Source: Pseudomonas phage LPPA15
Direction: 5' to 3' (one strand)
Sequence record: PV112476.1
Length of the DNA: 41,592 bases
Position numbers and translations under genes: made by a program. The notes below the pieces were generated by a model. That model had not been told where the DNA came from, ran no database searches, and saw only the letters and a list, made by a program, of their open reading frames with translations. The first letter of the stretch is position 1. Each line of letters begins with the position of its first letter. Of this stretch, positions 1-39,732 are shown in pieces.

Positions 1-127
1 TTATCCGAAACCAACTAGCCCACAACAACGGGCGCGAATTTACAGGAAGCGCAAAAATGCAAATGTCCAATTTAAAACCGGCGTCGGAACTGGCGCAACG
101 CTTCGGCGTTAAAGCGTTGGTTTATGG
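1..127. repeat. Terminal direct repeat: nt 1-127 are identical to nt 41466-41592, consistent with a circular or terminally redundant genome.
   Basis: Direct comparison of the first and last 127 nt of the window; the length equals a common assembler k-mer size. Confidence 0.9.
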
Positions 128-737
128 CGGGCCGGGCATGGGCAAAACGCCTATCATCAAAACCGCCCCGCGCCCGGTCTTGTGCGTCGTAGAACCCGGC
201 ATGTTGTCCATGCGCGACGCGACGAATATTCCCGCATGGGATGCTTACACGCCGGAAAGAATCGACGAATTCTTTAAATGGCTTTTTACGTCGAACGAAT
301 CAAAGAATTTTGATACGGTCGGCATTGATTCCATTTCGCAACTTGCCGAAATCATTTTGACGCAAGAATTAGGCCGTAACAAAGACGGTCGAAAAGCTTA
401 TGGCGAAATGTCGCGCCGTGTTATGGAAATCGTTAATGCCCTGTACTATTTGCCGAACAAGCATATTTATTTGATTGGCAAACAGGCCGTAGCAGACGAA
501 AACGGCGTATCGACGAAGCGCCCGTATTTTCCGGGCCAAGATTTGAACGTTAAGGTTCCGCATCTTTACGACGAAATTTTGCACCTTGGCGAAGTCAATA
601 TTCCCGGCCAGCCGAAACCCGTTGTCGGCTTTCGCTGTTTGCCGACGTTCGGAATTATGGCGCGCGACCGTAGCGGGCGGCTTAACGAAATCGAACCGCC
701 GAACCTTGACGCAATCTTTAAAAAATGTATGTCGTAA
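57..737 (+). CDS. Sak4-like AAA ATPase (AAA_24 / RecA-fold recombination ATPase)
   Basis: N-terminal Walker A VYGGPGMGKT and a Walker B-like hhhD stretch (FDTVGIDSIS), about 225 aa, at the head of the recombination module. The start (ATG 57 or 63) overlaps the end of the upstream HTH gene that wraps the junction. Confidence 0.6.
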   Translation: MQMSNLKPASELAQRFGVKALVYGGPGMGKTPIIKTAPRPVLCVVEPGMLSMRDATNIPAWDAYTPERIDEFFKWLFTSNESKNFDTVGIDSISQLAEIILTQELGRNKDGRKAYGEMSRRVMEIVNALYYLPNKHIYLIGKQAVADENGVSTKRPYFPGQDLNVKVPHLYDEILHLGEVNIPGQPKPVVGFRCLPTFGIMARDRSGRLNEIEPPNLDAIFKKCMS

Positions 738-828: not shown

Positions 829-1578
829 ATGGCACAACTTATCCAAGCGTTCAACGCGCAACAGTACGACCCGACCCAAGGCGGCGGAAGCCTTCCCGTT
901 GGCCGTCATCCGGTCATCATCGAATCTTCGGAAGTCAAGGCGAACAAAGCGAACGACGGCGGTTATCTTCAACTTAACTTGAAGCTTATCGACGGCCCGC
1001 AAATGGGCACGACCGGCGCTTATCGCTTGAACCTGTACCATTCCAACCCGCAAACGGCAGAAATTGCGCATCGCCAGCTTTCCGCGATTTGCCACGTTAT
1101 CGGCGTTTTCAACGTGCAAGATTCGCAGCAATTGCACAACATCCCGTTTATCGTCGAAGTTGGTTTGCAAAAAGGCGAAGAAGCGGCGCAAAAGGGTTAC
1201 ACCGAAGTTAAAAAGGTGTTCGACATTAACGGCAACGAACCCGGCAAAGCGGGCCAAGGCGCGGCCCCTGCGCAACCCCAAGGCCAAGGCGGCTTCGGCC
1301 AGCAACAGCCCGCCCAACAGCCGCAGCAACCCCAAGGCGGCGGGGCATGGGGTCAGCAACCCGCGCAACAGCCCGCAGCGCAGCCGCAAGGCAACGGCCC
1401 GGCTTGGGGCGGTCAGCCGCAGCAACCGGCGCAGCAACCGGCCCAACAGCCCGCCGCATGGGGCCAGCCGCAGCAACCCGCAGCCCAACCGCAGCAACCG
1501 GCAGGCAATGCGCCCGCTTGGGGCCAGCAACAGGGCGGCGCAGCCCCGGCAGGCGGCGCACCTTGGGGCCAGCGTTAA
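829..1578 (+). CDS. Phage ssDNA-binding-like protein (tentatively DUF669-type) with a C-terminal Gly/Gln/Pro-rich low-complexity tail
   Basis: Position next to Sak4. The C-terminal ~110 aa are GQQPAQQP...AWG repeats resembling the disordered linker of bacterial SSB, but the acidic DDIPF tip is absent. Confidence 0.45.
   Translation: MAQLIQAFNAQQYDPTQGGGSLPVGRHPVIIESSEVKANKANDGGYLQLNLKLIDGPQMGTTGAYRLNLYHSNPQTAEIAHRQLSAICHVIGVFNVQDSQQLHNIPFIVEVGLQKGEEAAQKGYTEVKKVFDINGNEPGKAGQGAAPAQPQGQGGFGQQQPAQQPQQPQGGGAWGQQPAQQPAAQPQGNGPAWGGQPQQPAQQPAQQPAAWGQPQQPAAQPQQPAGNAPAWGQQQGGAAPAGGAPWGQR
1255..1575 (+). repeat. Imperfect tandem nucleotide repeats (CAGCAACC[C/G]GC units) encoding the Q/P/G-rich tail.
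   Basis: Repeated cagcaacccgc / cagccgcagcaacc units visible in the sequence. Confidence 0.7.
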
Positions 1579-2170: not shown

Positions 2171-3164
2171 CGCGCCGGGCGTTGCAAAGGCGCTTGCGAA
2201 ACGCATTCTTGAAGAAATCGACGAATATTGCGTTCGCGCTTACGACGGCGGGCACCGTTCGCACCTTGGCGCGTCGCTAATTGGTCGCGAATGCAAGCGT
2301 TATTTGTGGTACGTTTTCCGCTGGTGTTTGCACGAAAAGACGACCGGGCGGCAACAACGCTTGTTTAATCGTGGGCACCGCGAAGAAGCGCGTTTTGTCG
2401 AATGGCTGGAAGGCATCGGCTTTAAAATTTGGTTCGAAAACTACGAAGGCTTCGCATATCATGCCGAAAGCGATTCGTATTGCATTCTTGGCCCAAACGA
2501 AGAAGGCGACGGGCTGGCCGAACGCATCTTGCCGGAAAACCCGGCTTTTCGTGCCCACATTGCCCGCGCCAAAGCCGACGGGCTGGAATTCCCGCAATAT
2601 CGTATTTCCGACGTTATGGGGCACTTCGGCGGGTCGCTTGACGGCATCGCAGTTTTGCCGGAACGCTACGGTATCGAAGAACCCGTTTTGTTGGAATTCA
2701 AAACCAACGGAACCGGCCAAGGTTTTAACAAACTTGCCGAAGACGGAATGCCAATTGCAAAGCCCGAACACTTCGCGCAAACTTCGACGTATGGCAAAAA
2801 ATACAATTTCAAATATTGCGTTTATTTGAACATCAACAAAAACGACGATTCGTTGCATGTTGAAGTCGTGAAGCTGAATCATAATCTTGGCGAACAAATG
2901 ATTATGAAGGCCGAACAAATCATTACAACGCAAAAGCCGCCCGCGCGTTTGTCGGACAATCCGACGTTTCATAAGTGCGGATATTGCGCAATGAAAGACA
3001 TTTGCCACAAAGGCGCAGTTCCCGAAGTGAATTGCCGAAGCTGCGCATTCGCCCGGCCTGTTGAAAATGCCGAATGGTTTTGCGAAGTTCATAACGGCAA
3101 TATTCCGAAAGACTTTATCCCGAAGGCTTGCCCTTCGTATAAGGCAATAACGCAAAATGTCTAG
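2076..3164 (+). CDS. Cas4/RecB-like PD-(D/E)XK exonuclease with a C-terminal Cys cluster (putative Fe-S)
   Basis: D...LLEFKT motif (GSLDGIAV...LLEFKTNG), four-plus C-terminal cysteines (CGYC...C...C..C). ATG at 2076 has a TAAGGAAA RBS and overlaps the upstream gene by 95 nt. Confidence 0.6.
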   Translation: MPSKENSSNANKPNSEETPKKSDAGKQSVSLDAPGVAKALAKRILEEIDEYCVRAYDGGHRSHLGASLIGRECKRYLWYVFRWCLHEKTTGRQQRLFNRGHREEARFVEWLEGIGFKIWFENYEGFAYHAESDSYCILGPNEEGDGLAERILPENPAFRAHIARAKADGLEFPQYRISDVMGHFGGSLDGIAVLPERYGIEEPVLLEFKTNGTGQGFNKLAEDGMPIAKPEHFAQTSTYGKKYNFKYCVYLNINKNDDSLHVEVVKLNHNLGEQMIMKAEQIITTQKPPARLSDNPTFHKCGYCAMKDICHKGAVPEVNCRSCAFARPVENAEWFCEVHNGNIPKDFIPKACPSYKAITQNV

Positions 3165-4812
3165 TATTTACGCGAATCGTTGGTATCAAGACGAAGCGGA
3201 ATTTTCGATATTCGACTATTTCCAACGCGGCGGGGTCGGAAACCCCGTCGTCGCCATGCCGACAGGAACCGGAAAGTCTGTCGTAATTGCGAATTTCATT
3301 CGTCGCATTTTCGGATATTGGCCGAATCAGCGCGTTATGATGCTAACGCACGTTAAAAAGCTTATTTCGCAAAATGCCGAAAAGCTTTTGTCGGTTTGGC
3401 CTGTCGCACCAATGGGCATTTATTCCGCTGGCCTGAATAGCCGCGAAATGATTATGCCAATCGTATTCGGCGGCGTGCAATCTGTCGCGCCTGCCATTAA
3501 AAAATCGCTTGAAGCGAACGACGGCAAGCCGCCGCATTTAAAGCATTTCGGCTGGCGCGATTTATTGATTATCGACGAAGCGCATTTGTTAAGCCCTTCG
3601 GAAGATACGCAATATCAATATATTATCGCCGAACTTCGCAAGATTAACCCGTATTTAAAAGTTATCGGTTTTACCGCAACGCCATATCGTCTTAAACAAG
3701 GCATGATTACCGAAGACGACGGCATTTTTACCGATATTTGTTACGACATAACAGGAATCGAAGCGTTTAACCGACTTATCGCCGAAGGCTATTTGGCCCC
3801 GCTGATTTCACGCCCGACAACAACGAAAATTGATACGTCGAACCTTAATCTTTCGAACGGCGATTTTAACGGCAAGCAAGCCGAAGACGAAGCCGAAAAA
3901 GTTATTTACGAAGGATTGAAGGAAACTTGCGAACTTGGTTACGACCGTCGCCATTGGCTTATTTTTGCCGCTGGCGTCAAGAATGCCGAACATATCGCAT
4001 CTATGCTTAATTCGTTCGGAATAAGCGCCGTCGCCAGTCATTCGAAGTTAAGCGAAAAGGAAAACGACGCGCGCATGGCGGCTTTCGAAGCTGGCGAATT
4101 CCGGGCACTTGTGGGCATGAACAAATATACGACGGGCTACGATTTCCCGGCGATTGACCTTATCGCCGACTTTCAGCCTACTATGTCGCCCGGCAAACAC
4201 GTTCAAAAAGGCGGGCGCGGAACGCGACCTTCGCCGGATACTGGCAAAGAAAATTGCTTGTTTCTTGACTTCGCCGGAAACGTTCGACGGCTTGGGCCGA
4301 TTAACGACCCGGTTAAGCCGCGCAAACCCGGCAAAGGTGCGCCGGGCGACGCGCCGGTTCGTATTTGCGAAGTCTGCGGCGTTTATAACCATGCTTCGGC
4401 CCGTCATTGCATGGCGTGCGGCAATGAATTTACTTTTGAAACGAAGTTGTTTGCAAATTCCTTCGGCGGCGAAATTCTGCGGTCGGATGCGCCAATAGTT
4501 GAATACTTCAACGTTCAAAAGGTTATTTACGGCTTGCACGAAAAGAAAAACGAACACGGCGTTTTAACTTCGCCGCCTTCTATTAAAGTTTCGTATTTCT
4601 GCGGCTTTCAAATGTTCAATGAATGGCTTTGCCTAGAACATCCGGGGCTTGCAGGCAAACGGGCGCGCGATTGGTGGCGGCAACGTCATTCGGAAGAACC
4701 GCCGCCGACTACTTACGAAGCATTGCGCCGCGTTTCAGAATTGCGCGTTCCGTCGCGTATTCGTGTTCATACGAACAAGAAATATCCCGAAATTCTTTCC
4801 GCTGAATGGTGA
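3157..4812 (+). CDS. Superfamily-2 DEAD/DEAH-box DNA helicase with a C-terminal zinc ribbon
   Basis: Walker A AMPTGTGKS, Walker B LIIDEAHLL, C-terminal CEVCG...CMACG. Overlaps the nuclease stop (ATGTCTAG). Confidence 0.7.
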   Translation: MSSIYANRWYQDEAEFSIFDYFQRGGVGNPVVAMPTGTGKSVVIANFIRRIFGYWPNQRVMMLTHVKKLISQNAEKLLSVWPVAPMGIYSAGLNSREMIMPIVFGGVQSVAPAIKKSLEANDGKPPHLKHFGWRDLLIIDEAHLLSPSEDTQYQYIIAELRKINPYLKVIGFTATPYRLKQGMITEDDGIFTDICYDITGIEAFNRLIAEGYLAPLISRPTTTKIDTSNLNLSNGDFNGKQAEDEAEKVIYEGLKETCELGYDRRHWLIFAAGVKNAEHIASMLNSFGISAVASHSKLSEKENDARMAAFEAGEFRALVGMNKYTTGYDFPAIDLIADFQPTMSPGKHVQKGGRGTRPSPDTGKENCLFLDFAGNVRRLGPINDPVKPRKPGKGAPGDAPVRICEVCGVYNHASARHCMACGNEFTFETKLFANSFGGEILRSDAPIVEYFNVQKVIYGLHEKKNEHGVLTSPPSIKVSYFCGFQMFNEWLCLEHPGLAGKRARDWWRQRHSEEPPPTTYEALRRVSELRVPSRIRVHTNKKYPEILSAEW

Positions 4813-4816
4813 AACT

Positions 4817-5137
4817 ATGAAAAAGAAAATTGTTGTCGAATGCGACGAATCCGCCGCGTTTTGGGTCGAAGATTCAATTAAACGCCTTGGATGCGTTACG
4901 CGCGTTGAAGACGTTTGCCCCGATTCGAACGTAGAAAAGAACCGCGAAATGTTGTTGCAACGTTCCATCGTCGGGCTTGCGAAATACGGCGTAACGACCG
5001 ATAATAACCCGCTTACGTTGCGGGCTTGGCTGCAACATGCGCTAGAAGAAGCCTTGGATATGGCGAACTATCTTCAAGCGGCGATTTCCAAACTTGACGA
5101 AGAAGGGGCAAACCATGACAACGCAAATCGACAATAA
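4817..5137 (+). CDS. Small hypothetical protein, possibly an all-alpha NTP-pyrophosphohydrolase-like domain
   Basis: 106 aa with ATG immediately after the helicase stop. LQHALEEALDMANYL is weakly MazG-like. Overlaps the next gene by 23 nt. Confidence 0.3.
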   Translation: MKKKIVVECDESAAFWVEDSIKRLGCVTRVEDVCPDSNVEKNREMLLQRSIVGLAKYGVTTDNNPLTLRAWLQHALEEALDMANYLQAAISKLDEEGANHDNANRQ

Positions 5138-6266
5138 CGTTCCGATTCCTGCCGACGAAGCGCCAGCCATCGAAGAAAAGGCCGAAGCCAAACCGGAAGC
5201 GCCGAAAAAGAAACATCGCGCCAGACGTGCAAAAACGACCGCCGTTAATCCTGCGGCGTCATTGCTTGCGGCGTTGAAGTTTGTTGCCGTAGCACAAAAG
5301 AAGGCCGGAACAGTTCAACAGCAATTCGGCGTAATTTCTGGCAATTGGGCCGCAGCATCGAACGGCGTTCTTACTGTTGCAACAAAAGTCGAAGAAGATT
5401 TGTCGGCCTGCCCACATACCTACCAACTTATCGACGCGCTTTCCAAGGTCGGCGAAGAACTGGCAATTACGCAACTTTCGCCGACTTCGCTTGCGGTCGT
5501 TTCTGGCGCATTTCGGGCCTTGATTCCGTGCGTCGGTTTTGGCGACGTTGGTATTACCGGCCCCGACGAACGTTGCGCCGTAATTGACGACCGGATTAAA
5601 GCCGCATTCGAAGCGGTTTTGCCGCTTGCGACAGACGGGGCGCAACATGCACACCTTGCCGCCGTGCTGTTGCAGTCTGGAAGCGCCGTCGCGACGAACG
5701 GGCACGTCTTGGCCGAATACTGGCACGGCATAGACCTTCCGCCGATGCTGATTCCCAAGGCTTCGGCGGTTGCCATTTTGAAGGCTGGCAAGGCGCTTAC
5801 CGGGTTTGGCTATTCCGGGCCGTCGGCGACGTTTTGGTTCGAAGATGATTCGTTTATTAAAACGCAACTTTTCGCCGAACAATTCCCGAACTATCAACCG
5901 CTTTTCAACTGCGAAGGTTTGAACCCTTGGCCTGTTCCCGATGAATTTTACAAGGCCGTTCGTTCGATTGAATCTTTCAGCCGAAGCGGCGTTGTGTATT
6001 TTGAAAACGGCATGTTGGCTTCGAACGAACAAGAAACGGAAGCTTCGACTTATAAAATCGAAGGTTTGCCGGAAGGCATGGGATTTAATGCGAAGTACCT
6101 TCTTATGGTCGAATCTTCGTTTAAGAACGTACATTTCGACGAACAATCGAATAAAGCGTTCTTCTTTGGCGAAAACGTGCGGGGCGTTCTTATGGGTATT
6201 GACCGAAACAGCGCAACGCCGTATAATCCCGAAGCAAACGAATTTGAAGACGACATTCCATTTTAA
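5115..6266 (+). CDS. DnaN-like beta sliding clamp with an N-terminal extension and an appended SSB-type C-terminal tip (...EFEDDIPF)
   Basis: Segments recalled as similar to E. coli DnaN: ATNGHVLA vs ATDGHRLA, FPNYQPLF vs FPDYRRVLP, GFNAKYLLMV vs GFNVSYVLDV. About 320-aa core. ATG 5115 has a GAAGGGG RBS. Confidence 0.55.
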   Translation: MTTQIDNNVPIPADEAPAIEEKAEAKPEAPKKKHRARRAKTTAVNPAASLLAALKFVAVAQKKAGTVQQQFGVISGNWAAASNGVLTVATKVEEDLSACPHTYQLIDALSKVGEELAITQLSPTSLAVVSGAFRALIPCVGFGDVGITGPDERCAVIDDRIKAAFEAVLPLATDGAQHAHLAAVLLQSGSAVATNGHVLAEYWHGIDLPPMLIPKASAVAILKAGKALTGFGYSGPSATFWFEDDSFIKTQLFAEQFPNYQPLFNCEGLNPWPVPDEFYKAVRSIESFSRSGVVYFENGMLASNEQETEASTYKIEGLPEGMGFNAKYLLMVESSFKNVHFDEQSNKAFFFGENVRGVLMGIDRNSATPYNPEANEFEDDIPF

Positions 6267-6278
6267 GAAGGTTCGAAT

Positions 6279-8348
6279 ATGTTAGACGCTAACGGCTTTA
6301 TCGTAACAAAAGCAAGCCGCAAAATTGACAAAATCGCGTCGGCGGTTCGTATGTTGCTTCGGCCTGTTGAATTTATGACAGACGAAGAACTAATGTCGAT
6401 TCCAGCCGGAAGCGTCTTCGTTTTCGACGTTGAATGTTACCGAAACTTTTTTTACGTCGCTTTTAAGTGCCTGTCGAATGGAAAGTTCGTCGCTTTCGAA
6501 AGGTCGCCCGACTTTGATTTTCCCGAATTGAAATTGCGTTGGATGCTTTGGCGCTTTTGTCTTGTGGGCTTCAATTCAGCAAGTTACGATATTCCAATGG
6601 TCGAACTTGCCGCGAAGGGTCTTAGCTGCAACGAACTTAAAGAAGCTTCGGATTTCATCATTAAAAGCGGCATAAACTACGGAACGAAAAAGGTTACGCC
6701 GTTTGATATTGAAAAGAAATATAACGTTCAAATCGGCAAATACAACCATATCGACTTATTCAACGTATGCCCGGTAAATGGCGGCGTATCTGCTAACCCG
6801 GCGTCGCTTAAACTGTATTCCGGTCGCTTGCACGCCGAACGAATGCAAGATTTGCCGTTTCCAGAATCGCACATTTTGACGGCGGAAGATGCCGCAGTAG
6901 TTCGCCCTTATTGCTGCAACGACTTAGCGAATACGGAACTTCTTTTTAACGAACTTGCGCCCGAACTTAAATTGCGCATGGAAATGTCGGAAGAATACGG
7001 CATAGACCTTCGCAGCCGGTCGGATGCTCAAATTGCCGAAGCTGTTATTAACAGCGAATTGCAAAAAGTATTAGGATACTATCCGCGCAAGCCCACATTA
7101 GCCGCCGATTTGGTCTTGCAGTACAACGCCCCGGATTTCATTTCGTACCGTTCGCAGCAATTGCGCGATATGTTCGAAGTCGTCAAGAATGCGCGTTTCT
7201 ATCTTGACGGCTTAGGGTCGCCGATTATGCCGGATGAAATCGACAAGCTTAAAGTAAAAATCGGTAACAGCGTTTATAAACTTGGCATGGGCGGGCTTCA
7301 TTCAACAGAAAAGAAGACTGCCCATAAAGCAACCGACGAAATCATTTTGGCAGATAACGACGTAGAATCGTTTTATCCGCGAATCATCCTTAACCAAAAG
7401 CTTTTCCCGCCGCACCTTGGCGAAGCTTTCTTGCAGGTCTATAACCAAATCGTCGAAACCCGTATTCATGCCAAAGCGCAAGCCGCAGCATGTAAGAAAG
7501 CGGGCGACAAGGCCGGGGCGAAGAAATGGAAGACTATTGCCGATAGTTTGAAGATTACGATTAACGGAAGCTTTGGCAAACTTGGCAACAAATATTCAAC
7601 GCTTTACGCGCCGCAACTTATGTTGCAAGTTACCATTACCGGGCAACTTGTTTTGCTTATGCTTATCGAAATGCTAGAAGACGCCGGTATTTCGGTTATT
7701 TCTGGCAATACCGACGGCATTGTTTCGAAATATCACAAAGACAGACATAACGACGTTCGGGCCATTATTGCCGAATGGGAAAAGCGAACCAACTTCAAGA
7801 CCGAAGAAACGCGGTATTCTGCCGTTTATAGTCGCGACGTTAATTCCTATGTCGCAATCAAGACAGACGGCGGCGACGAAGAAGCGCGCTTTCTTGATGA
7901 ACGCTTGGGCGTCAAAACCAAAGGCGCGTATTGCGAACGCGGTTCGGCCCTTAATTCGATTCTTTCGAAGAACCCGGAAGCTTTGGTATGTTCCGACGCT
8001 GTTATTTCATTCTTGAAGAACGGAACGCCTGTCGAAAAAACGATTCGTGAATGCAAAGATATTCGCCGCTTCGTATCAGTTAAGAACGTCAAAGGCGGCG
8101 GCGAAAAGAACGGCGTTTATCTTGGCAAGGTCGTTCGCTGGTATTACCCGAAAGGCGAAACCGGCCATATTTCATACGTCGGAAGCGGAAACAAAGTCGG
8201 GAAGACAGACGGCGCACGCCCTTTAATGGATTTGCCGACCGAATTTCCCGACGATGTTAATTACGAATGGTACATTAACGAAGCCGTCGATATGCTTTAC
8301 GATTGCGGCGGGCTTCGTAAAGCCGAAACGGCTTCGCTTTTCTTTTAG
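6279..8348 (+). CDS. Family-B DNA polymerase with a 3'-5' exonuclease domain (compact, 689 aa)
   Basis: Exo I FDVEC, Exo III YCCND, Pol A DVESFYPRII (DxxSLYPS), Pol B KITINGSFGK, Pol C SGNTDGI. Ends ...ETASLFF, resembling a clamp-binding motif. Confidence 0.75.
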   Translation: MLDANGFIVTKASRKIDKIASAVRMLLRPVEFMTDEELMSIPAGSVFVFDVECYRNFFYVAFKCLSNGKFVAFERSPDFDFPELKLRWMLWRFCLVGFNSASYDIPMVELAAKGLSCNELKEASDFIIKSGINYGTKKVTPFDIEKKYNVQIGKYNHIDLFNVCPVNGGVSANPASLKLYSGRLHAERMQDLPFPESHILTAEDAAVVRPYCCNDLANTELLFNELAPELKLRMEMSEEYGIDLRSRSDAQIAEAVINSELQKVLGYYPRKPTLAADLVLQYNAPDFISYRSQQLRDMFEVVKNARFYLDGLGSPIMPDEIDKLKVKIGNSVYKLGMGGLHSTEKKTAHKATDEIILADNDVESFYPRIILNQKLFPPHLGEAFLQVYNQIVETRIHAKAQAAACKKAGDKAGAKKWKTIADSLKITINGSFGKLGNKYSTLYAPQLMLQVTITGQLVLLMLIEMLEDAGISVISGNTDGIVSKYHKDRHNDVRAIIAEWEKRTNFKTEETRYSAVYSRDVNSYVAIKTDGGDEEARFLDERLGVKTKGAYCERGSALNSILSKNPEALVCSDAVISFLKNGTPVEKTIRECKDIRRFVSVKNVKGGGEKNGVYLGKVVRWYYPKGETGHISYVGSGNKVGKTDGARPLMDLPTEFPDDVNYEWYINEAVDMLYDCGGLRKAETASLFF

Positions 8349-37219: not shown

Positions 37220-37417
37220 TCAATAGTTGATAAGGAATTGCTTTACAAACTTGCGGCGGTCTTTCGATGCTATGCACAAATCGACCAAAGGGCGGTATTC
37301 AGGTTCAACGCGGTTTCGAACCCGCTTGGCAAAGTTACGAATTTCTTTGCCGTCTGCGCCCCAATGATACAAAAGCGCGATGCCTAACGCGAAATCAAGA
37401 ATCGTAAGTTCGTTCAT
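37220..37417 (-). CDS. Hypothetical small protein translationally coupled to the primase-polymerase gene (ATGA overlap)
   Basis: Internal ATG overlapping the primase-polymerase stop. Confidence 0.35.
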   Translation of the reverse strand: MNELTILDFALGIALLYHWGADGKEIRNFAKRVRNRVEPEYRPLVDLCIASKDRRKFVKQFLINY

Positions 37418-39732
37418 AGTCCGAACGCCTTTGCGTTTGAAATCATGTAACATTGTGCCGAAGTTCCGTAAGAATCATGCGCAAGCTTCGGGCTAAGTTG
37501 CTGAATATCGCCGCGTTCCGTAAGCGTCTTCAAAGCGCGTTTAAGTGCGCCGCTTGACCCGATGCGGTCTTTGCGGAACACGGCAACGGCTGCAAGCTTC
37601 CTTTGTACGAACGAATACGGAATTACTTTATTCGAATGAAGGTTGCCCATATTTTCGCCCGCGTATTTTGAAACTTCGGGCCAAGGCGAAACGACAAATT
37701 CTTTCATCGTCGAAATTACCTTGGCAAGCTGTTTCGTTTCGTCATTGTCTATGCCGATTTCGCCAGCGTTGAAACGGTCTAGCAAGTTGCGCACGTCGGC
37801 GACAATAAGATTCGTTGCCCATGCGGCGGCATCAACGGTAACGATTGGGTCGTAAGGGTTGCAACCTACGGCGACAAGTGCGGCAAGTTTCATTGCTTTA
37901 ATGTGCGCCCGGTTCCATAAATGGCGGCGAACTTCTTTGTCGGAACTGTTAATGTTCAAATCGCAATGCCGGTCGAATTCGTCGAACAATGCTTTCGCTT
38001 CCGGCGTAAATTGAACATGAACGGCTTTATGTTGGCTGTTCAACATAAGCGAATGCGCGCAAACTGTCGAAAGCCTGTCGATAAGTTCGAAGCTTGGTTG
38101 CGCGTAAATATGATTTGGGTTAAGCGGCGGTCGGTCGCCGTGATATTCAATCGTTGTAAAGCGCGGCAAAAGACCTTCGGAAATCAAACCTTCGTGCAAA
38201 CCTTCGTAAAATTTTTCGGGCGTTGATTCGCCAAGCAATGTAAAAGCCGGGGCGGTTACTGCCGAAGTGTTCTTTTCCTTGTCCGAATAAATCGACGGTC
38301 GAAGAACCTTGCCTTCGCCGCTTTTATTGTAGGCATCCAGTAAGAAACGACGAAGGCCCATAAGGTGCGAAGGTGCGTTGGGGCTTGCCATTTGTTGCAT
38401 ATAAATTCCGAATTCGCCGACCATCGAAACGAACGACGTTGGCCCCTTCGACATATATTTAATAACGGCTTGCGACGATGCAATTTCGCCCGGCCCGATA
38501 AAATCAACGGCGGCGGGTACGGTACGGATTACTTGCGCCATCAATTTATCGACGCCGCTTGCGATAGCTTCTTTACCTGTTCCGGTCGGCGCTAGAAGCA
38601 AGACGTATTGATTAAGCCCGGTTCCCGAAACGTTGTATGCCCTGCCCACAATACCGGCCAGAAAGCCAAGCGCGCCAGCCAAGGCGATTTCGGCAACAGG
38701 GCGCGGCGCTTGTGCGTAAATGAATTGGGCGATTTCGCCGACAAGGCCGGGCGGAACCGAATAAACGTTGGTTGTCGGGGCTGGAATTGCGACAGGCTGC
38801 GGCGTTTGTTGCGTTGCGTCGCTTTGTGCCATTGCGCGCGATTGTTCGGCCTTCGCTTTGGCTTCGATTGCTTCGTTAAGTTGGTTGCGCAATCCGTCAA
38901 TATCAACGGGCGGCAACATGCGGTCGAAGCATTTGTTAAGCATGTAATTAACGTAATCGACGCGCTTTCCTTTTTCGCGTTGGCCCAAACCCGACGCCCG
39001 AAACATTCGCGAAATCTGCGCCCGGTTTTGGGTATAGAACGCGATAATATCGACCAAGGCAAAGTCGGCTTCGGATTGCGACGGGTAATAATCTTGCCAA
39101 CGACCGGCGTAAAGGTCGGCGAACTTGTCGCCGTTTGCTGCGGCTGTTGCACGCGCCAAAATTTCTTCGTCGGTTTCTTTGGCTTCGGCTACGCCAGCAT
39201 AAACGGCGGCGGCAACCGAACCCGAACCCATTTGCGACCAAAGAACGTTCAATAGTTCGCCGCAATCTTTAATCGGCGCATTGCGGTAAATGTCGCCCGT
39301 CATCGTCATATAACGCGCCGAAGAATAAACTTCGATAAACGAACGACGACGACCCGACGGCAACGCGCCTTTAACGATGATATGTAAGCCGGAACCCGAA
39401 GGCGAACGTTCGGCGTAACTGTCAAATTCGTTAAAGATTTTAACTTGACGGTCTAACGCTGTTTGGTCGCCCTTTGTGTCGTCAAGGTCGATAAACGCGA
39501 ATGGGTCGGCTTCGGTCAATACGAAACCAATTCCGCTATACATGCCGGAAGTTGTTAGAACGTGCGCCGCTTCGTCGAAACTGGCCCAAGTGCTAGGGTC
39601 GGTTACGCTGGCAAGTCTGCCGTTCAATGCTGAATAAGGAACCTTCGTCGGTTTCGGCCCGTCTGTATCTTCGTAACGCCAAACAACCCATTGGCGGAAA
39701 ATCCGCATTTCTTGCGGTATATTGTTTAACAT
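37414..39732 (-). CDS. Bifunctional primase-polymerase with a C-terminal D5/P4-type NTPase-helicase domain
   Basis: Primase-polymerase motifs FAFIDLDD and SGSGLHIIVKG in the N-terminal 130 aa. P-loop-like LLLAPTGTGKEA at residues about 378-389 in the C-terminal half. Confidence 0.65.
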   Translation of the reverse strand: MLNNIPQEMRIFRQWVVWRYEDTDGPKPTKVPYSALNGRLASVTDPSTWASFDEAAHVLTTSGMYSGIGFVLTEADPFAFIDLDDTKGDQTALDRQVKIFNEFDSYAERSPSGSGLHIIVKGALPSGRRRSFIEVYSSARYMTMTGDIYRNAPIKDCGELLNVLWSQMGSGSVAAAVYAGVAEAKETDEEILARATAAANGDKFADLYAGRWQDYYPSQSEADFALVDIIAFYTQNRAQISRMFRASGLGQREKGKRVDYVNYMLNKCFDRMLPPVDIDGLRNQLNEAIEAKAKAEQSRAMAQSDATQQTPQPVAIPAPTTNVYSVPPGLVGEIAQFIYAQAPRPVAEIALAGALGFLAGIVGRAYNVSGTGLNQYVLLLAPTGTGKEAIASGVDKLMAQVIRTVPAAVDFIGPGEIASSQAVIKYMSKGPTSFVSMVGEFGIYMQQMASPNAPSHLMGLRRFLLDAYNKSGEGKVLRPSIYSDKEKNTSAVTAPAFTLLGESTPEKFYEGLHEGLISEGLLPRFTTIEYHGDRPPLNPNHIYAQPSFELIDRLSTVCAHSLMLNSQHKAVHVQFTPEAKALFDEFDRHCDLNINSSDKEVRRHLWNRAHIKAMKLAALVAVGCNPYDPIVTVDAAAWATNLIVADVRNLLDRFNAGEIGIDNDETKQLAKVISTMKEFVVSPWPEVSKYAGENMGNLHSNKVIPYSFVQRKLAAVAVFRKDRIGSSGALKRALKTLTERGDIQQLSPKLAHDSYGTSAQCYMISNAKAFGL

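Follow-up and report, generated by a model that had tools for sequence, protein, structure and literature searches.

The window analysed here, that is, the whole stretch of 41,592 nucleotides of Pseudomonas phage LPPA15, carries a conserved replication module composed of a Sak4-like ATPase, a DUF669 SSB, a Cas4-like nuclease, a RadD-like helicase, a sliding clamp and a family-B polymerase (Table 1). The other ORFs of the window encode structural, lysis and terminase proteins, a dCMP deaminase, MazG and small unknown proteins, and no clamp loader gene was found in the whole 41.6 kb.

Table 1. Replication genes of the window and features of the clamp, polymerase and DUF669 proteins
Feature	Position	Strand	Basis or remark
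Sak4-like (AAA_24) ATPase, second candidate phage-encoded receptor	57..737	+	PHROG 124 E=3.4e-49; Pfam AAA_24
DUF669 SSB-like protein, Q/P/G-rich tail	829..1578	+	Pfam DUF669 E=2.8e-10; PHROG 6015 'single strand DNA binding protein' E=1.4e-90
APWGQR, own conserved tip of the DUF669 protein	1558-1575	+	
Cas4-domain exonuclease of the module	2202..3164	+	PHROG 1990 E=3.1e-104
RadD-like SF2 helicase, 551 aa, candidate tip receptor	3157..4812	+	NCBIfam RadD E=2e-61; PDB
Phage beta-type sliding clamp, 383 aa	5115..6266 (stop included)	+	PHROG 947; AF2 and Foldseek; PDB profile search
N-terminal disordered extension, clamp aa 1-46	5115..5252	+	pLDDT <50 for residues 1-43
QIDNNVPIP, conserved short motif in the N-terminal extension	5124-5150	+	
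Basic patch PKKKHRARRAK in the N-terminal extension	5202-5234	+	
C-terminal tail, clamp aa 361-383: variable disordered linker and tip	6195..6263	+	pLDDT; end of PHROG profile
SSB-Ct-like tip EFEDDIPF, clamp aa 376-383	6240..6263	+	Logo of 154 clamps; comparison with SSB
Family-B-type DNA polymerase, 689 aa	6279..8348	+	PHROG 1252 E=1.8e-217; starts 13 nt downstream of the clamp gene
ETASLFF, candidate clamp-binding motif at the polymerase end	8325..8345	+	Comparison of C-termini
Primase/helicase, completes the replication gene set	37414..39732	-	PHROG 3022 E=2.5e-291

The clamp ORF extends from an ATG at 5115, preceded at 7 nt by an AAGGGG ribosome-binding site, to a TAA at 6264-6266; this start was favoured over the upstream TTG at 5094 because the clamp homologues likewise start with MTTQIDNNVPIP. 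The 383-aa product ends in ...PEANEFEDDIPF. The preliminary description of this DNA had read the protein as a DnaN-like sliding clamp from the segments ATNGHVLA, FPNYQPLF and GFNAKYLLMV, all of which are found in it, and had proposed structure prediction against DnaN as a check. When this was run, the AF2 model (pLDDT 82.8) showed a beta-clamp fold, and all of its best 50 Foldseek matches in the PDB were bacterial beta clamps (E ~1e-18, TM 0.68-0.71, ~360 aligned columns). The protein also matched PHROG 947, named 'DNA polymerase processivity factor', over nearly the whole profile: its aa 41-365 align with positions 3-366 out of 368 (E=1.7e-71). Its relatives in GenBank are annotated as 'replicative clamp'. 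In the PDB, the profile of the clamp family matched only beta clamps, weakly (E=4e-4), and the searches against Pfam and NCBIfam gave no DnaN match (DNA_pol3_beta domains, dnaN). According to its predicted fold the protein is a beta clamp, and according to its sequence a very distant member of this group.

Like bacterial DnaN, the phage clamp has three domains, with TM ~0.7 against the clamps of C. crescentus, P. aeruginosa and E. coli, and its gene adjoins that of a polymerase ending in a clamp-binding-like motif. It differs from DnaN in being only 15-18% identical to it, in having an N-terminal extension of ~45 aa with a basic patch as well as an SSB-like C-terminal tail, and in the lack of an encoded cognate loader. 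The C-terminal strand RGVLMG is conserved, with R356 and G357 invariant in the alignment; by homology, it would lie at the position where E. coli beta builds part of its C-face cleft. The N-terminal extension, previously given as ~60 aa, was shortened to ~43-46 aa. R37 of this extension was invariant and R35 nearly so, and both N-terminal motifs recurred in many clamp homologues whether or not these had the C-terminal tip; among distant clamp representatives there was no clear association between extension and tip.

The polymerase gene is probably translationally coupled to the clamp gene. Regular expressions located all of the family-B motifs, Exo I-III and Pol A-C, in its product (FDVE49, NSASYD99, YCCND211, DVESFYP361, KITINGSFG425 and NTDG477), and its sequence matches in the PDB were family-B polymerases only. 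Since it scored 22.5 bits against Pfam DNA_pol_B (cut-off 23) and ~30 bits against the NCBIfam Pol II model (30.6; cut-off 570), the earlier wording 'Pol II-like family-B polymerase' stands for the family and not for Pol II, the protein being a distant member. Its end, ETASLFF, had been compared with a clamp-binding motif, and a conserved C-terminal ...LxFF was indeed observed in the relatives: 52 of 64 ended in FF, LF or FW (for example KQLQFF, KQISFF, KQMEFW and KQGGLF). The TASLFF of the window has no Q when it is set against the Q-L-[SD]-L-F-like clamp-binding motif, and the Queuovirinae polymerases lack a C-terminal motif of this kind. As for the helicase, it aligned with RadD in the PDB (6jde/7r7j, E=1.2e-47 over aa 4-411) and reached 208 bits against the NCBIfam RadD model (cut-off 720), so that it should be regarded as a homologue and not as an equivalog.

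The clamp core is followed by a disordered tail of 17-21 aa (tail peptide, for example, WEANEFEDDIPF): residues 367-383 had pLDDT <50, and the PHROG clamp profile stops at residue 365. Its tip, EFEDDIPF, is identical to the DFDDDIPF of E. coli SSB at six of eight positions, the two changes being D to E, and the match takes in the -7 (aromatic) and -8 (acidic) positions, in agreement with the earlier statement that the tail mimics the acidic tip of SSB. The published SSB tips are MDFDDDIPF in E. coli (PMC11436948) and DSFDDDIPF in Pseudomonas (PMC10711431). In a logo of 154 clamps, D was found at -5 in 138 sequences, D at -4 in 132, I at -3 in 139, P at -2 in 151 and F at -1 in 149, with Y, M or F at -7 and E or D at -8. 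The positions conserved in the clamp tips are those conserved in SSB-Ct (almost without exception P and F, D at both -4 and -5, an aromatic residue at -7). A survey of phage clamps for DDIPF-like ends had been suggested together with an alignment to SSB tails. Among the closest 120 homologues, 83 have exactly DDIPF at the end and ~110 have an acidic [IV]PF-type tip; with the tail thus conserved across homologues, the ending EANEFEDDIPF is real and not the product of a frameshift or mis-assembly. The tip was also present in 50 of 150 distant representatives (34-56% identity).

The C-terminal extension measured 8-61 aa in homologues with the tip and had a median of 5 aa in those without it, the latter being essentially tail-less. 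The linkers between core and tip varied from 3 to ~60 aa and were mutually unrelated in sequence while the tip was near-invariant, showing that the tip is carried on a short, disordered and fast-evolving linker. When 6150 ORFs of at least 50 aa from 81 related sequences were searched for ends matching [DE][DE].?[IVLM]P[FY], only 45 clamps and nine members of one small-protein family were recovered; among all ORFs of at least 30 aa in the window, the clamp alone had such an end. The clamp tip is therefore far beyond chance, and it was shown to be under strong purifying selection. In the single-chain AF2 model the tail has low confidence and is not docked on the clamp core. We considered whether the clamp might itself be an SSB and rejected this, because the core that bears the SSB-Ct motif is a beta clamp and has no OB-fold. 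To our knowledge the SSB tip has been described so far on SSB-type proteins only. Searches of the literature for DDIPF or SSB-Ct together with phage, clamp or mimicry returned SSB-type carriers only and no clamp of this kind, in keeping with the preliminary description, which knew no account of such a fusion.

The tip had been presented as part of a clamp fusion. It is not specific to the clamp: in related phages it is carried by the RadD-like helicase or by a small zinc-ribbon protein, for which no Pfam family was found; the unit to be explained is therefore the replication module and not the clamp fusion. In 83 related loci the carrier was the clamp alone in 43, the small protein alone in 29 and the helicase alone in three; clamp and small protein both had the tip in two loci, and six loci had none. 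The small-protein family was the lead that emerged from a gene-family enrichment of tip-bearing against tip-less loci, which otherwise returned mostly phylogeny and spurious antisense ORFs. Of 120 helicases homologous to that of phage 9g, 115 carried a tip, and tandem tips occurred in some. The helicase ends in DFDDDIPF in phage 9g, DPDYVPF in CAjan and DLDDDIPF in PaMx25, the first of these being the last eight residues of the SSB of E. coli, the host of 9g. At its 3' end the helicase gene of 9g showed no nucleotide similarity to E. coli genomes, and this tip has therefore not been acquired recently from the 3' end of host ssb. No locus had an E. coli-type SSB within 10 kb of the clamp, and the DUF669 protein has no acidic tip, its C-terminus being kept as PWGQR, PAWGAR or PPWGQK across loci.

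These distributions showed that the tip belongs to the whole replication module and has nearly always one carrier at a time, and the module seems to need one such tag. Parsimony on a neighbour-joining tree required ~43 changes of tip state, compared with ~88 after shuffling, so that the presence of the tip is clustered yet patchy; gains and losses are inseparable here because the deep branches of the tree are unreliable. Acinetobacter phage Loki, with a complete genome, is one of the few related phages without a tip. The module of a Synechococcus phage has the tip, and the clamp of a Rhodobacter phage ends in DDEIPF, the alpha-proteobacterial SSB tail being LDDEIPF.

Because the tip is conserved and yet mobile among carriers, we consider it very probable that it is a functional docking peptide of the SSB type, selected as such. 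It would dock on a protein having a pocket for SSB tips, with a hydrophobic hole for the terminal Phe and basic residues around it. Since no loader is encoded and the phage SSB has no tip, a host protein that interacts with SSB, such as the chi subunit of the clamp loader, is the favoured partner; with a tip-less DUF669 SSB, the SSB 'address label' may sit on another part of the replisome. On the clamp, this label would draw SSB-interacting host proteins to the primer-template junction of the phage. First among the candidates is the host clamp loader, drawn in through chi, its normal route to SSB-coated primed sites; once the clamp is loaded, the polymerase would engage it by means of the ...SLFF at the polymerase C-terminus. 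Chi is reported to bind SSB-Ct and to help clamp loading (PMC11436948; PMC3045619; PMC3632105).

Several observations bear on the host as the source of the partner. The tip stays at the bacterial consensus while the clamp cores fall to 35% identity, which suggests an external constraint, and lineage variants fit the hosts, as in the DDEIPF of the Rhodobacter phage and the DFDDDIPF of 9g. Some close relatives of the window's clamp have NFPPF (EEDDNFPPF) in place of DDIPF, and this switch occurred between near-identical phages whose Sak4, helicase and polymerase are 99.1, 99.1 and 98.8% identical, with no co-variation in any of the three; a change of tip without a change in these phage proteins also counts in favour of a host partner. 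On the other side, the DPDYVPF of CAjan and the NFPPF of the window's relatives copy no host SSB (no SSB ending in DDNFPPF was found in 185,579 species-representative genomes, which gave five chance protein matches), and the existence of tip-less phages, Loki included, also counts against it. Taken together, we would put a host protein as the partner at close to an even chance, slightly on the lower side. Chi in particular is rather improbable as the specific partner. We know of no chi in cyanobacteria, and the Synechococcus module has the tip, so that chi is not the universal partner; besides, linkers of only ~3 aa in some clamps would place the partner on the C-face of the clamp, a position that fits chi less well than it fits a polymerase or the delta subunit. 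The fuller proposal, that phages with this module mimic the SSB hub of the host, one portable label plugging a foreign replisome with a tip-less SSB of its own into the network of host SSB partners and especially capturing the loader through chi to load an orphan clamp, is tentative and somewhat more doubtful than a host partner as such.

A partner encoded by the phage itself is a serious rival, because the studied relatives of both the RadD-like helicase and Sak4 bind SSB tips or depend on them. The clamp tail could dock in a pocket of the RadD-like helicase, tethering and activating it beside the clamp-polymerase pair, and a tip borne by the helicase would then work either in cis or in trans, from one helicase molecule to another. 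The pocket of E. coli RadD takes the SSB tip and this switches on the ATPase: SSB-Ct is bound with a KD of ~5 uM, SSB raises the ATPase activity approximately threefold, and a nine-residue SSB-Ct peptide alone, with no DNA, also stimulates it (PMC10238739). The phage helicase is clearly RadD-like according to both profile and PDB matches, no locus with sufficient flanking sequence lacks it, and its gene lies two genes upstream of the clamp gene. The hydrophobic positions of the pocket are retained (I/F/F/F/L/I) together with one basic residue, R145 being K in 74 of 79 phage helicases, whereas in contrast to E. coli RadD the other two of the three pocket arginines are not conserved (Q, A or E stands in place of R21, and the R49 position lies in a 5-aa insertion) and the helicase itself bears the tip in some phages. 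Moreover, the pocket residues are alike in tip-less phages and do not correlate with the carrier class, and the helicase stayed 99.1% unchanged when the tip became NFPPF. In the AF2 model of a tip-bearing helicase of the 9g type the entire tail, tip included, had pLDDT <50, and docking in cis is therefore not predicted. The helicase is a rather unlikely partner, on nearly the same footing as chi.

Docking on the Sak4-like ATPase has a clearly smaller chance. The tip would bring the clamp or the helicase to ssDNA coated with Sak4, coupling strand annealing to recombination-primed synthesis. HK620 Sak4 requires the last six residues of its cognate SSB (NDYPPF) for binding to SSB-covered ssDNA and for its stimulation (PMC5928155), a Sak4-like gene lies within the module, and the EEDDNFPPF of some close clamp relatives resembles the HK620 tip. 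Nevertheless, the DUF669 protein encoded beside sak4 has its own conserved tip, PWGQR, and may already serve Sak4, and the near-identity of Sak4 in phages with DDIPF and NFPPF also speaks against this partner.

Equally small is the chance that the tip serves the phage polymerase. In T7, the acidic, Phe-terminated tails of the gp4 helicase-primase and of the gp2.5 SSB bind the gp5 polymerase; similarly, the tip could dock on a basic patch of the polymerase and add a second contact between clamp, or helicase, and polymerase. The very short linkers of some clamps, which put the tip on the polymerase-binding face, and the adjacent, probably co-translated clamp and polymerase genes are consistent with this. 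However, phage-internal tails of the T7 type do not copy the host SSB tip, as the clamp tip does over eight positions, and phages that differ in their tips have polymerases with 98.8% identity. Nor was a basic patch identified on the polymerase here.

It is also improbable, to a similar degree, that the tip is a decoy that recruits nothing and competes with host SSB for nucleases, helicases and restart proteins, protecting phage DNA or stopping host replication; competition with host SSB was the second option of the preliminary description. As a mimic of the host motif the tip is exact, any carrier would do for a decoy, which fits the switching of carriers, and tandem tips occur on some helicases. 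But a free decoy could be placed anywhere, and all three carriers lie inside the replication module, two of them (clamp and helicase) being replication proteins; a decoy would, in addition, have to exceed the SSB tails of the cell, which we estimate at roughly thousands. Finally, a neutral relic or assembly artefact without function, for which the few tip-less phages and the degenerate tips of two others (DDISV and DDEIQF) could be cited, is effectively refuted by the conservation pattern, the last five residues being near-invariant over hundreds of independent sequences while the linker is free to vary, and by the complementary distribution among the three carriers.

The SSB-type docking peptide proposed here resembles bacterial SSB-Ct in its acidic run followed by I-P-F, in the free carboxylate at the extreme end and in the variable, disordered linker that precedes it. 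In contrast, it is carried by a ring-shaped clamp and not by an OB-fold binder of ssDNA, a clamp dimer would display two tips against the four of an SSB tetramer, and the linker, roughly 60 aa long in E. coli SSB, has ~15 aa in the window's clamp. T7 likewise has SSB-type acidic tails on a replisome protein that is not an SSB, where they couple parts of the replisome, and the gp4 tail is the closest precedent for the helicase-borne tip of 9g-like phages. The T7 tails, unlike the module tip with its host motif and three carriers, differ from the host SSB motif and have the phage polymerase as partner, and we know of no clamp with such a tail in T7 or T4. Tips resembling SSB-Ct also occur on phage SSBs, namely the HK620 SSB (NDYPPF, with Sak4) and Bas52_0087 (FDDDIPF), and the module likewise includes a Sak4-like ATPase, with the NFPPF variant in close clamp relatives. 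Those tips are on SSB-like OB-fold proteins, the ordinary carrier, whereas here the DUF669 protein is tip-less and other proteins have the tip.

The SSB tip is the central docking signal of bacterial genome maintenance. A tip that is selected on a clamp and swapped among clamp, helicase and small protein is a natural experiment on the purpose of this signal, and it suggests how phages that have a clamp and a non-canonical SSB but encode no loader make contact with partners of the host or of their own. The module occurs in well-known phages that are open to simple tests, such as phage 73 and DLP1/2 in Pseudomonas and Stenotrophomonas, and 9g and the Seuratviruses in E. coli. Defence systems in which phage SSBs or helicases are sensed are another field where the tip may matter. 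As regards annotation, tails of this kind lie outside the family profiles and are missed by domain searches.

The clamp reading frame has an AAGGGG ribosome-binding site 7 nt upstream of ATG 5115, a start favoured over an upstream TTG at 5094 because the homologues begin with MTTQIDNNVPIP, as the window clamp does; the protein ends in ...NPEANEFEDDIPF. All the segments quoted in the preliminary description were found in the window sequence, and its estimate of about 60 aa for the N-terminal extension had to be reduced to ~43-46 aa. Zero Pfam or NCBIfam matches were obtained with the clamp; PHROG 947 ('DNA polymerase processivity factor') matched residues 41-365 (E=1.7e-71), and a PDB search with a profile of 56 homologues found bacterial beta clamps only, weakly (E=4e-4). 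In an AlphaFold2 model built on the alignment of these 56 homologues (mean pLDDT 82.8), the core (residues 44-366) was confident and residues 1-43 and 367-383 fell below pLDDT 50. The top 50 PDB matches of the model in Foldseek were all bacterial beta clamps (Caulobacter, Pseudomonas, E. coli and others; E ~1e-18, TM 0.68-0.71, ~360 aligned columns, 15-18% identity), so that the proposed DnaN-type fold was confirmed in the predicted structure. The window is a siphophage of Septimatrevirus type. Phages 73 and PaMx10 of Pseudomonas and DLP1 and DLP2 of Stenotrophomonas, with which it shares ~76% nucleotide identity, have the gene annotated as 'replicative clamp' in their records.

The survey of clamp homologues for DDIPF-like ends agreed with the ending first noticed in the window. 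In a large protein collection, 83 of the 120 closest homologues ended exactly in DDIPF, and ~110 of the 120 did so when close variants (DDVPF, DEIPF, DNIPF, NFPPF) were included. When 1.84 billion cluster representatives were searched exhaustively with HMMER, 1004 relatives were obtained, and an acidic [IV]P[FY] tip ended 50 of the best 150 (34-56% identity). The C-terminal extension past the clamp core had a median of 23-30 aa (range 8-61) with a tip versus 5 aa without; its length followed tip presence, indicating that the tail exists almost only as a tip carrier, and the linkers showed no sequence relation among homologues. Counted from the C-terminus in 154 clamps, F occupied -1 in 149, P -2 in 151, I -3 in 139, D -4 in 132 and D -5 in 138, followed by D/E at -6, Y/M/F at -7 and E/D at -8. 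The SSB tip is MDFDDDIPF in E. coli (PMC11436948) and DSFDDDIPF in Pseudomonas (PMC10711431); the window tip, EFEDDIPF, agreed with the E. coli one at six of the final eight positions, the other two being D-to-E changes, and had the aromatic at -7 in common with it. The window and 80 related viral contigs gave 6150 ORFs of 50 aa or more; among these, the pattern [DE][DE].?[IVLM]P[FY] matched the ends of 45 clamps and of 9 members of one small-protein family, and nothing else; among window ORFs of at least 30 aa, the clamp alone had an acidic [IVLM]P[FY]-type end. As the ending is kept across homologues, it does not come from a frameshift or an assembly artefact, and the comparison of sequences indicates that the tail is under selection.

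In loci with a tail-less clamp, a small (~70-110 aa) zinc-ribbon-like protein was encoded between helicase and clamp, with the pattern CxxC...C...GC-x2-H (fuller form CxxC...C...PPxxxIV.GC..H). This protein, a member of PHROG 23504 (function unknown), gave no match in a Pfam scan and ended in HEDEIPF, MDDIPF, DDDIPY, DNDDIPF, DQDIPF and similar. Where a tip-bearing clamp and the small protein shared a locus, the latter was without a tip (for example, CECFELKG); in two loci scored for both clamp and small-protein tips, the small-protein end was non-acidic. Cultured phages with the small protein as carrier were Xanthomonas Langgrundblatt2, Rhizobium RHph_N17, Synechococcus Ssp-JY38 and Achromobacter phiAxp-1; Vibrio phage vB_VhaS-tm had the small protein with a non-acidic end (EWQLYIPF), and in Rhodobacter phage RcHartney the clamp was the carrier. 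E. coli phages 9g and CAjan and Pseudomonas phage PaMx25 bore no tip on clamp or small protein; their helicases were ~80-115 aa longer and ended in ...PPDFDDDIPF, ...DPDYVPF and ...DLDDDIPF, respectively, the last eight residues in 9g being identical to those of E. coli SSB. Among 120 proteins homologous to the 9g helicase (P0271-P0390, 44-99% identity), 115 ended in tips, with variable linkers and, in a few (P0367, P0380, P0331, P0368), as tandem doubles; in the RadD-like helicases of Queuovirinae the tip sat on a ~50-aa disordered tail. One homologue, P0302 (995 aa, end FDDIPF), contained intein/homing-endonuclease domains (PF05204, PF05203, PF14528) inside the helicase.

Among 83 loci having both helicase and clamp, the tip was on the clamp only in 43, on the small protein only in 29, on the helicase only in 3 and on clamp plus small protein in 2; six had none, two of them with degenerate clamp tips (DDISV, DDEIQF). 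The 46 clusters at 70% clamp identity were distributed as clamp 15, small protein 21, helicase 3, clamp plus small protein 2, none 3 and mixed 2, and no tip at all was present in Acinetobacter phage Loki, whose genome is complete. By these counts, the conserved replication/recombination module in which the clamp lies almost always shows one SSB-type tip on an exchangeable carrier, so that what has to be explained is the whole module and not just the clamp fusion.

Coordinates of the module and related features in the window, and examples of other tip carriers in related loci (L handles)
Feature	Location	Strand	Remarks
Sak4-like AAA_24 ATPase	57-737
DUF669 SSB-like protein	829-1578
DUF669 C-terminal tip	1558-1575		(A/P)PWGQR
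ORFs overlapping the DUF669 gene	793-1530; 1064-1592	-; +	almost certainly not genes
DUF3268 zinc-finger protein	1643-2170
Cas4-domain exonuclease	2202-3164
SF2 helicase (RadD-like)	3157-4812
Helicase C-terminus	4786-4809		PE[IV]LS[AY]E[WYF]
Small protein (PHROG 11184)	4814-5137
Clamp	5115-6266	+	ATG 5115; TAA 6264-6266; 383 aa
Clamp N-terminal motif 1	5124-5150		[IL]-[DE]-x-[NDG]-[IV]-P-[ILP]-P
Clamp N-terminal motif 2	5202-5234		PKKKHRARR
Polymerase	6279-8348	+	starts 13 nt past clamp stop; own GAAGG site
Primase/helicase	37414-39732	-
Primase/helicase C-terminus	37417-37431	-	xAFGL
Small zinc-ribbon-like protein (among others)	L041 2450-2677; L061 3537-3788; L085 8430-8624; L088 4020-4292; L082 4093-4356
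Small zinc-ribbon-like protein	L097 9-275	-
Tip-bearing helicases	L081 45-2048; L087 2598-4574; L090 2998-4884		9g gp11; CAjan gp48; PaMx25 gp46

The tail is very probably a functional SSB-type docking peptide, and its tip would stand in for the one that the DUF669 SSB of the module is without. The DUF669 protein had a long Q/P/G-rich low-complexity tail and no acidic tip, and none of the 80 loci encoded an E. coli-type SSB within 10 kb of the clamp. As partners, we tentatively favour host SSB-interacting proteins. Across eight positions the tip keeps to the bacterial consensus in carriers diverged to 35-45% identity, which argues for an external constraint, and a host partner is favoured because the phage is without functions supplied by the host network, the clamp loader being the clearest; none is encoded in the 41.6-kb window. 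Chi cannot be a universal partner, because a cyanophage (Ssp-JY38) also bears the tip and cyanobacteria, to our knowledge, are without chi. Binding of the SSB-Ct peptide by this clamp-loader subunit has been described (PMC11436948; PMC3045619, PMC3632105). Agreement between tip and host SSB was partial: the Rhodobacter phage tip, DDEIPF, resembles the alpha-proteobacterial SSB tail LDDEIPF (PMC13490951), the CAjan tip differs from that of E. coli SSB, and no SSB ending in DDNFPPF was found among species-representative bacterial genomes. The shortest clamp linkers, ~3 aa, would place any partner on the clamp C-face.

The helicase of the module itself is a rather unlikely partner. Its sequence is clearly RadD-like (NCBIfam RadD E=2e-61; PDB 6jde/7r7j E=1.2e-47), and in E. 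coli RadD the SSB tip occupies a hydrophobic pocket bordered by R21, R49 and R145, the RadD ATPase being raised ~threefold by SSB and stimulated by the nine-residue SSB-Ct peptide alone, without DNA (PMC10238739). In 79 phage helicases the hydrophobic pocket positions were kept, R145 was K in 74, the R21 position was not basic and R49 fell in an insertion, and this pattern was equal in phages with and without tips. No docking in cis was predicted by AlphaFold2 for a tip-bearing 9g-type helicase (pLDDT 86.4; residues 616-667, tip included, below 50) or for the clamp, whose tail was likewise below 50. Sak4 is a still less probable partner. The Sak4 of phage HK620 depends on the C-terminal hexapeptide (NDYPPF) of its cognate SSB (PMC5928155), and some close relatives of the window clamp carry the tip EEDDNFPPF; however, Sak4 and helicase were each 99.1% identical between the near-identical phages L006 (NEYEDDIPF) and L011 (SEEDDNFPPF), the L011 polymerase was 98.8% identical to that of L005 (DDIPF), and no co-variation with the tip was seen in Sak4, helicase or polymerase between L005/L006 and L011. 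By analogy with T7, whose gp4 helicase binds basic patches of the polymerase through its acidic tails (PMC12593628) and so offers an earlier case of SSB-like tails on replisome proteins other than SSB, the polymerase might receive the tip, which we consider as improbable as Sak4; a pure decoy is given equally little weight. That a tip so constrained should be without function is scarcely credible.

Annotation of the clamp family itself exists already in GenBank and PHROGs. In full-text literature searches the tip was met on SSB-type carriers only (for example, Bas52_0087 and the HK620 SSB), and the tail was not mentioned in the searched passages of the paper on the Seuratvirus helicase Heli22. 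The literature searched describes neither an SSB tip on a sliding clamp, which the preliminary description had supposed to be new, nor the swapping of the tip among clamp, helicase and small protein. The finding extends two known elements, the beta clamp and the SSB-Ct motif, and does not form a category of its own.

The polymerase had the full family-B motif set; its score was slightly under the Pfam threshold and far under the NCBIfam Pol II cut-offs, so that the earlier label 'Pol II-like' is too specific. Its C-terminus (...ETASLFF), which had been likened to a clamp-binding motif, was conserved and is a candidate for one: FF, LF or FW ended 52 of 64 related polymerases, with forms (for example, KQLQFF, KQISFF, KQGGLF) resembling in sequence the QL[SD]LF clamp-binding motif. 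An ...LxFF end was found in the window and most IMG/VR relatives and was missing from the polymerases of the 9g (L081), CAjan (L087), Vibrio (L089), PaMx25 (L090), Rhizobium (L088), Loki (L083) and phiAxp-1 (L086) phages, where any clamp-binding motif must therefore sit elsewhere in the protein.

The DUF669 tail ended in a conserved non-acidic tip of its own, kept with variants (PAWGAR, PPWGQK) across nearly all related loci (L002-L080); it looks like a second, phage-specific docking peptide, whose partner is perhaps the adjacent Sak4-like ATPase. Two long ORFs overlapping the repetitive Q/P-rich part of this gene, the plus-strand one in other frames, upset automated ORF picking in the gene-family enrichment test. 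The C-termini of helicase and primase/helicase were conserved across most related loci. Many relatives (L081-L090, Queuovirinae and relatives) had a 7-deazaguanine (queuosine-like) DNA-modification cluster between helicase and clamp, an interval that in the window held the small PHROG 11184 gene only; the remaining window content was structural, terminase, lysis, dCMP deaminase, MazG and small unknown ORFs. The disordered N-terminal extension of the clamp contained two short conserved motifs, one directly after the start and the other a basic patch in which R37 was invariant and R35 nearly so; both were present in many homologues, with or without the C-terminal tip, and DNA, the acidic tail or some other partner may be what they bind. 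Finally, the clamp homologue of Pseudomonas phage PSV3 (OP712466.1 / NC_069755.1; matches H74 and H75) was matched as 3 pieces over 1274 nt. Its annotation there comprises three hypothetical proteins, a pattern pointing to an insertion in the record or to frameshifts.
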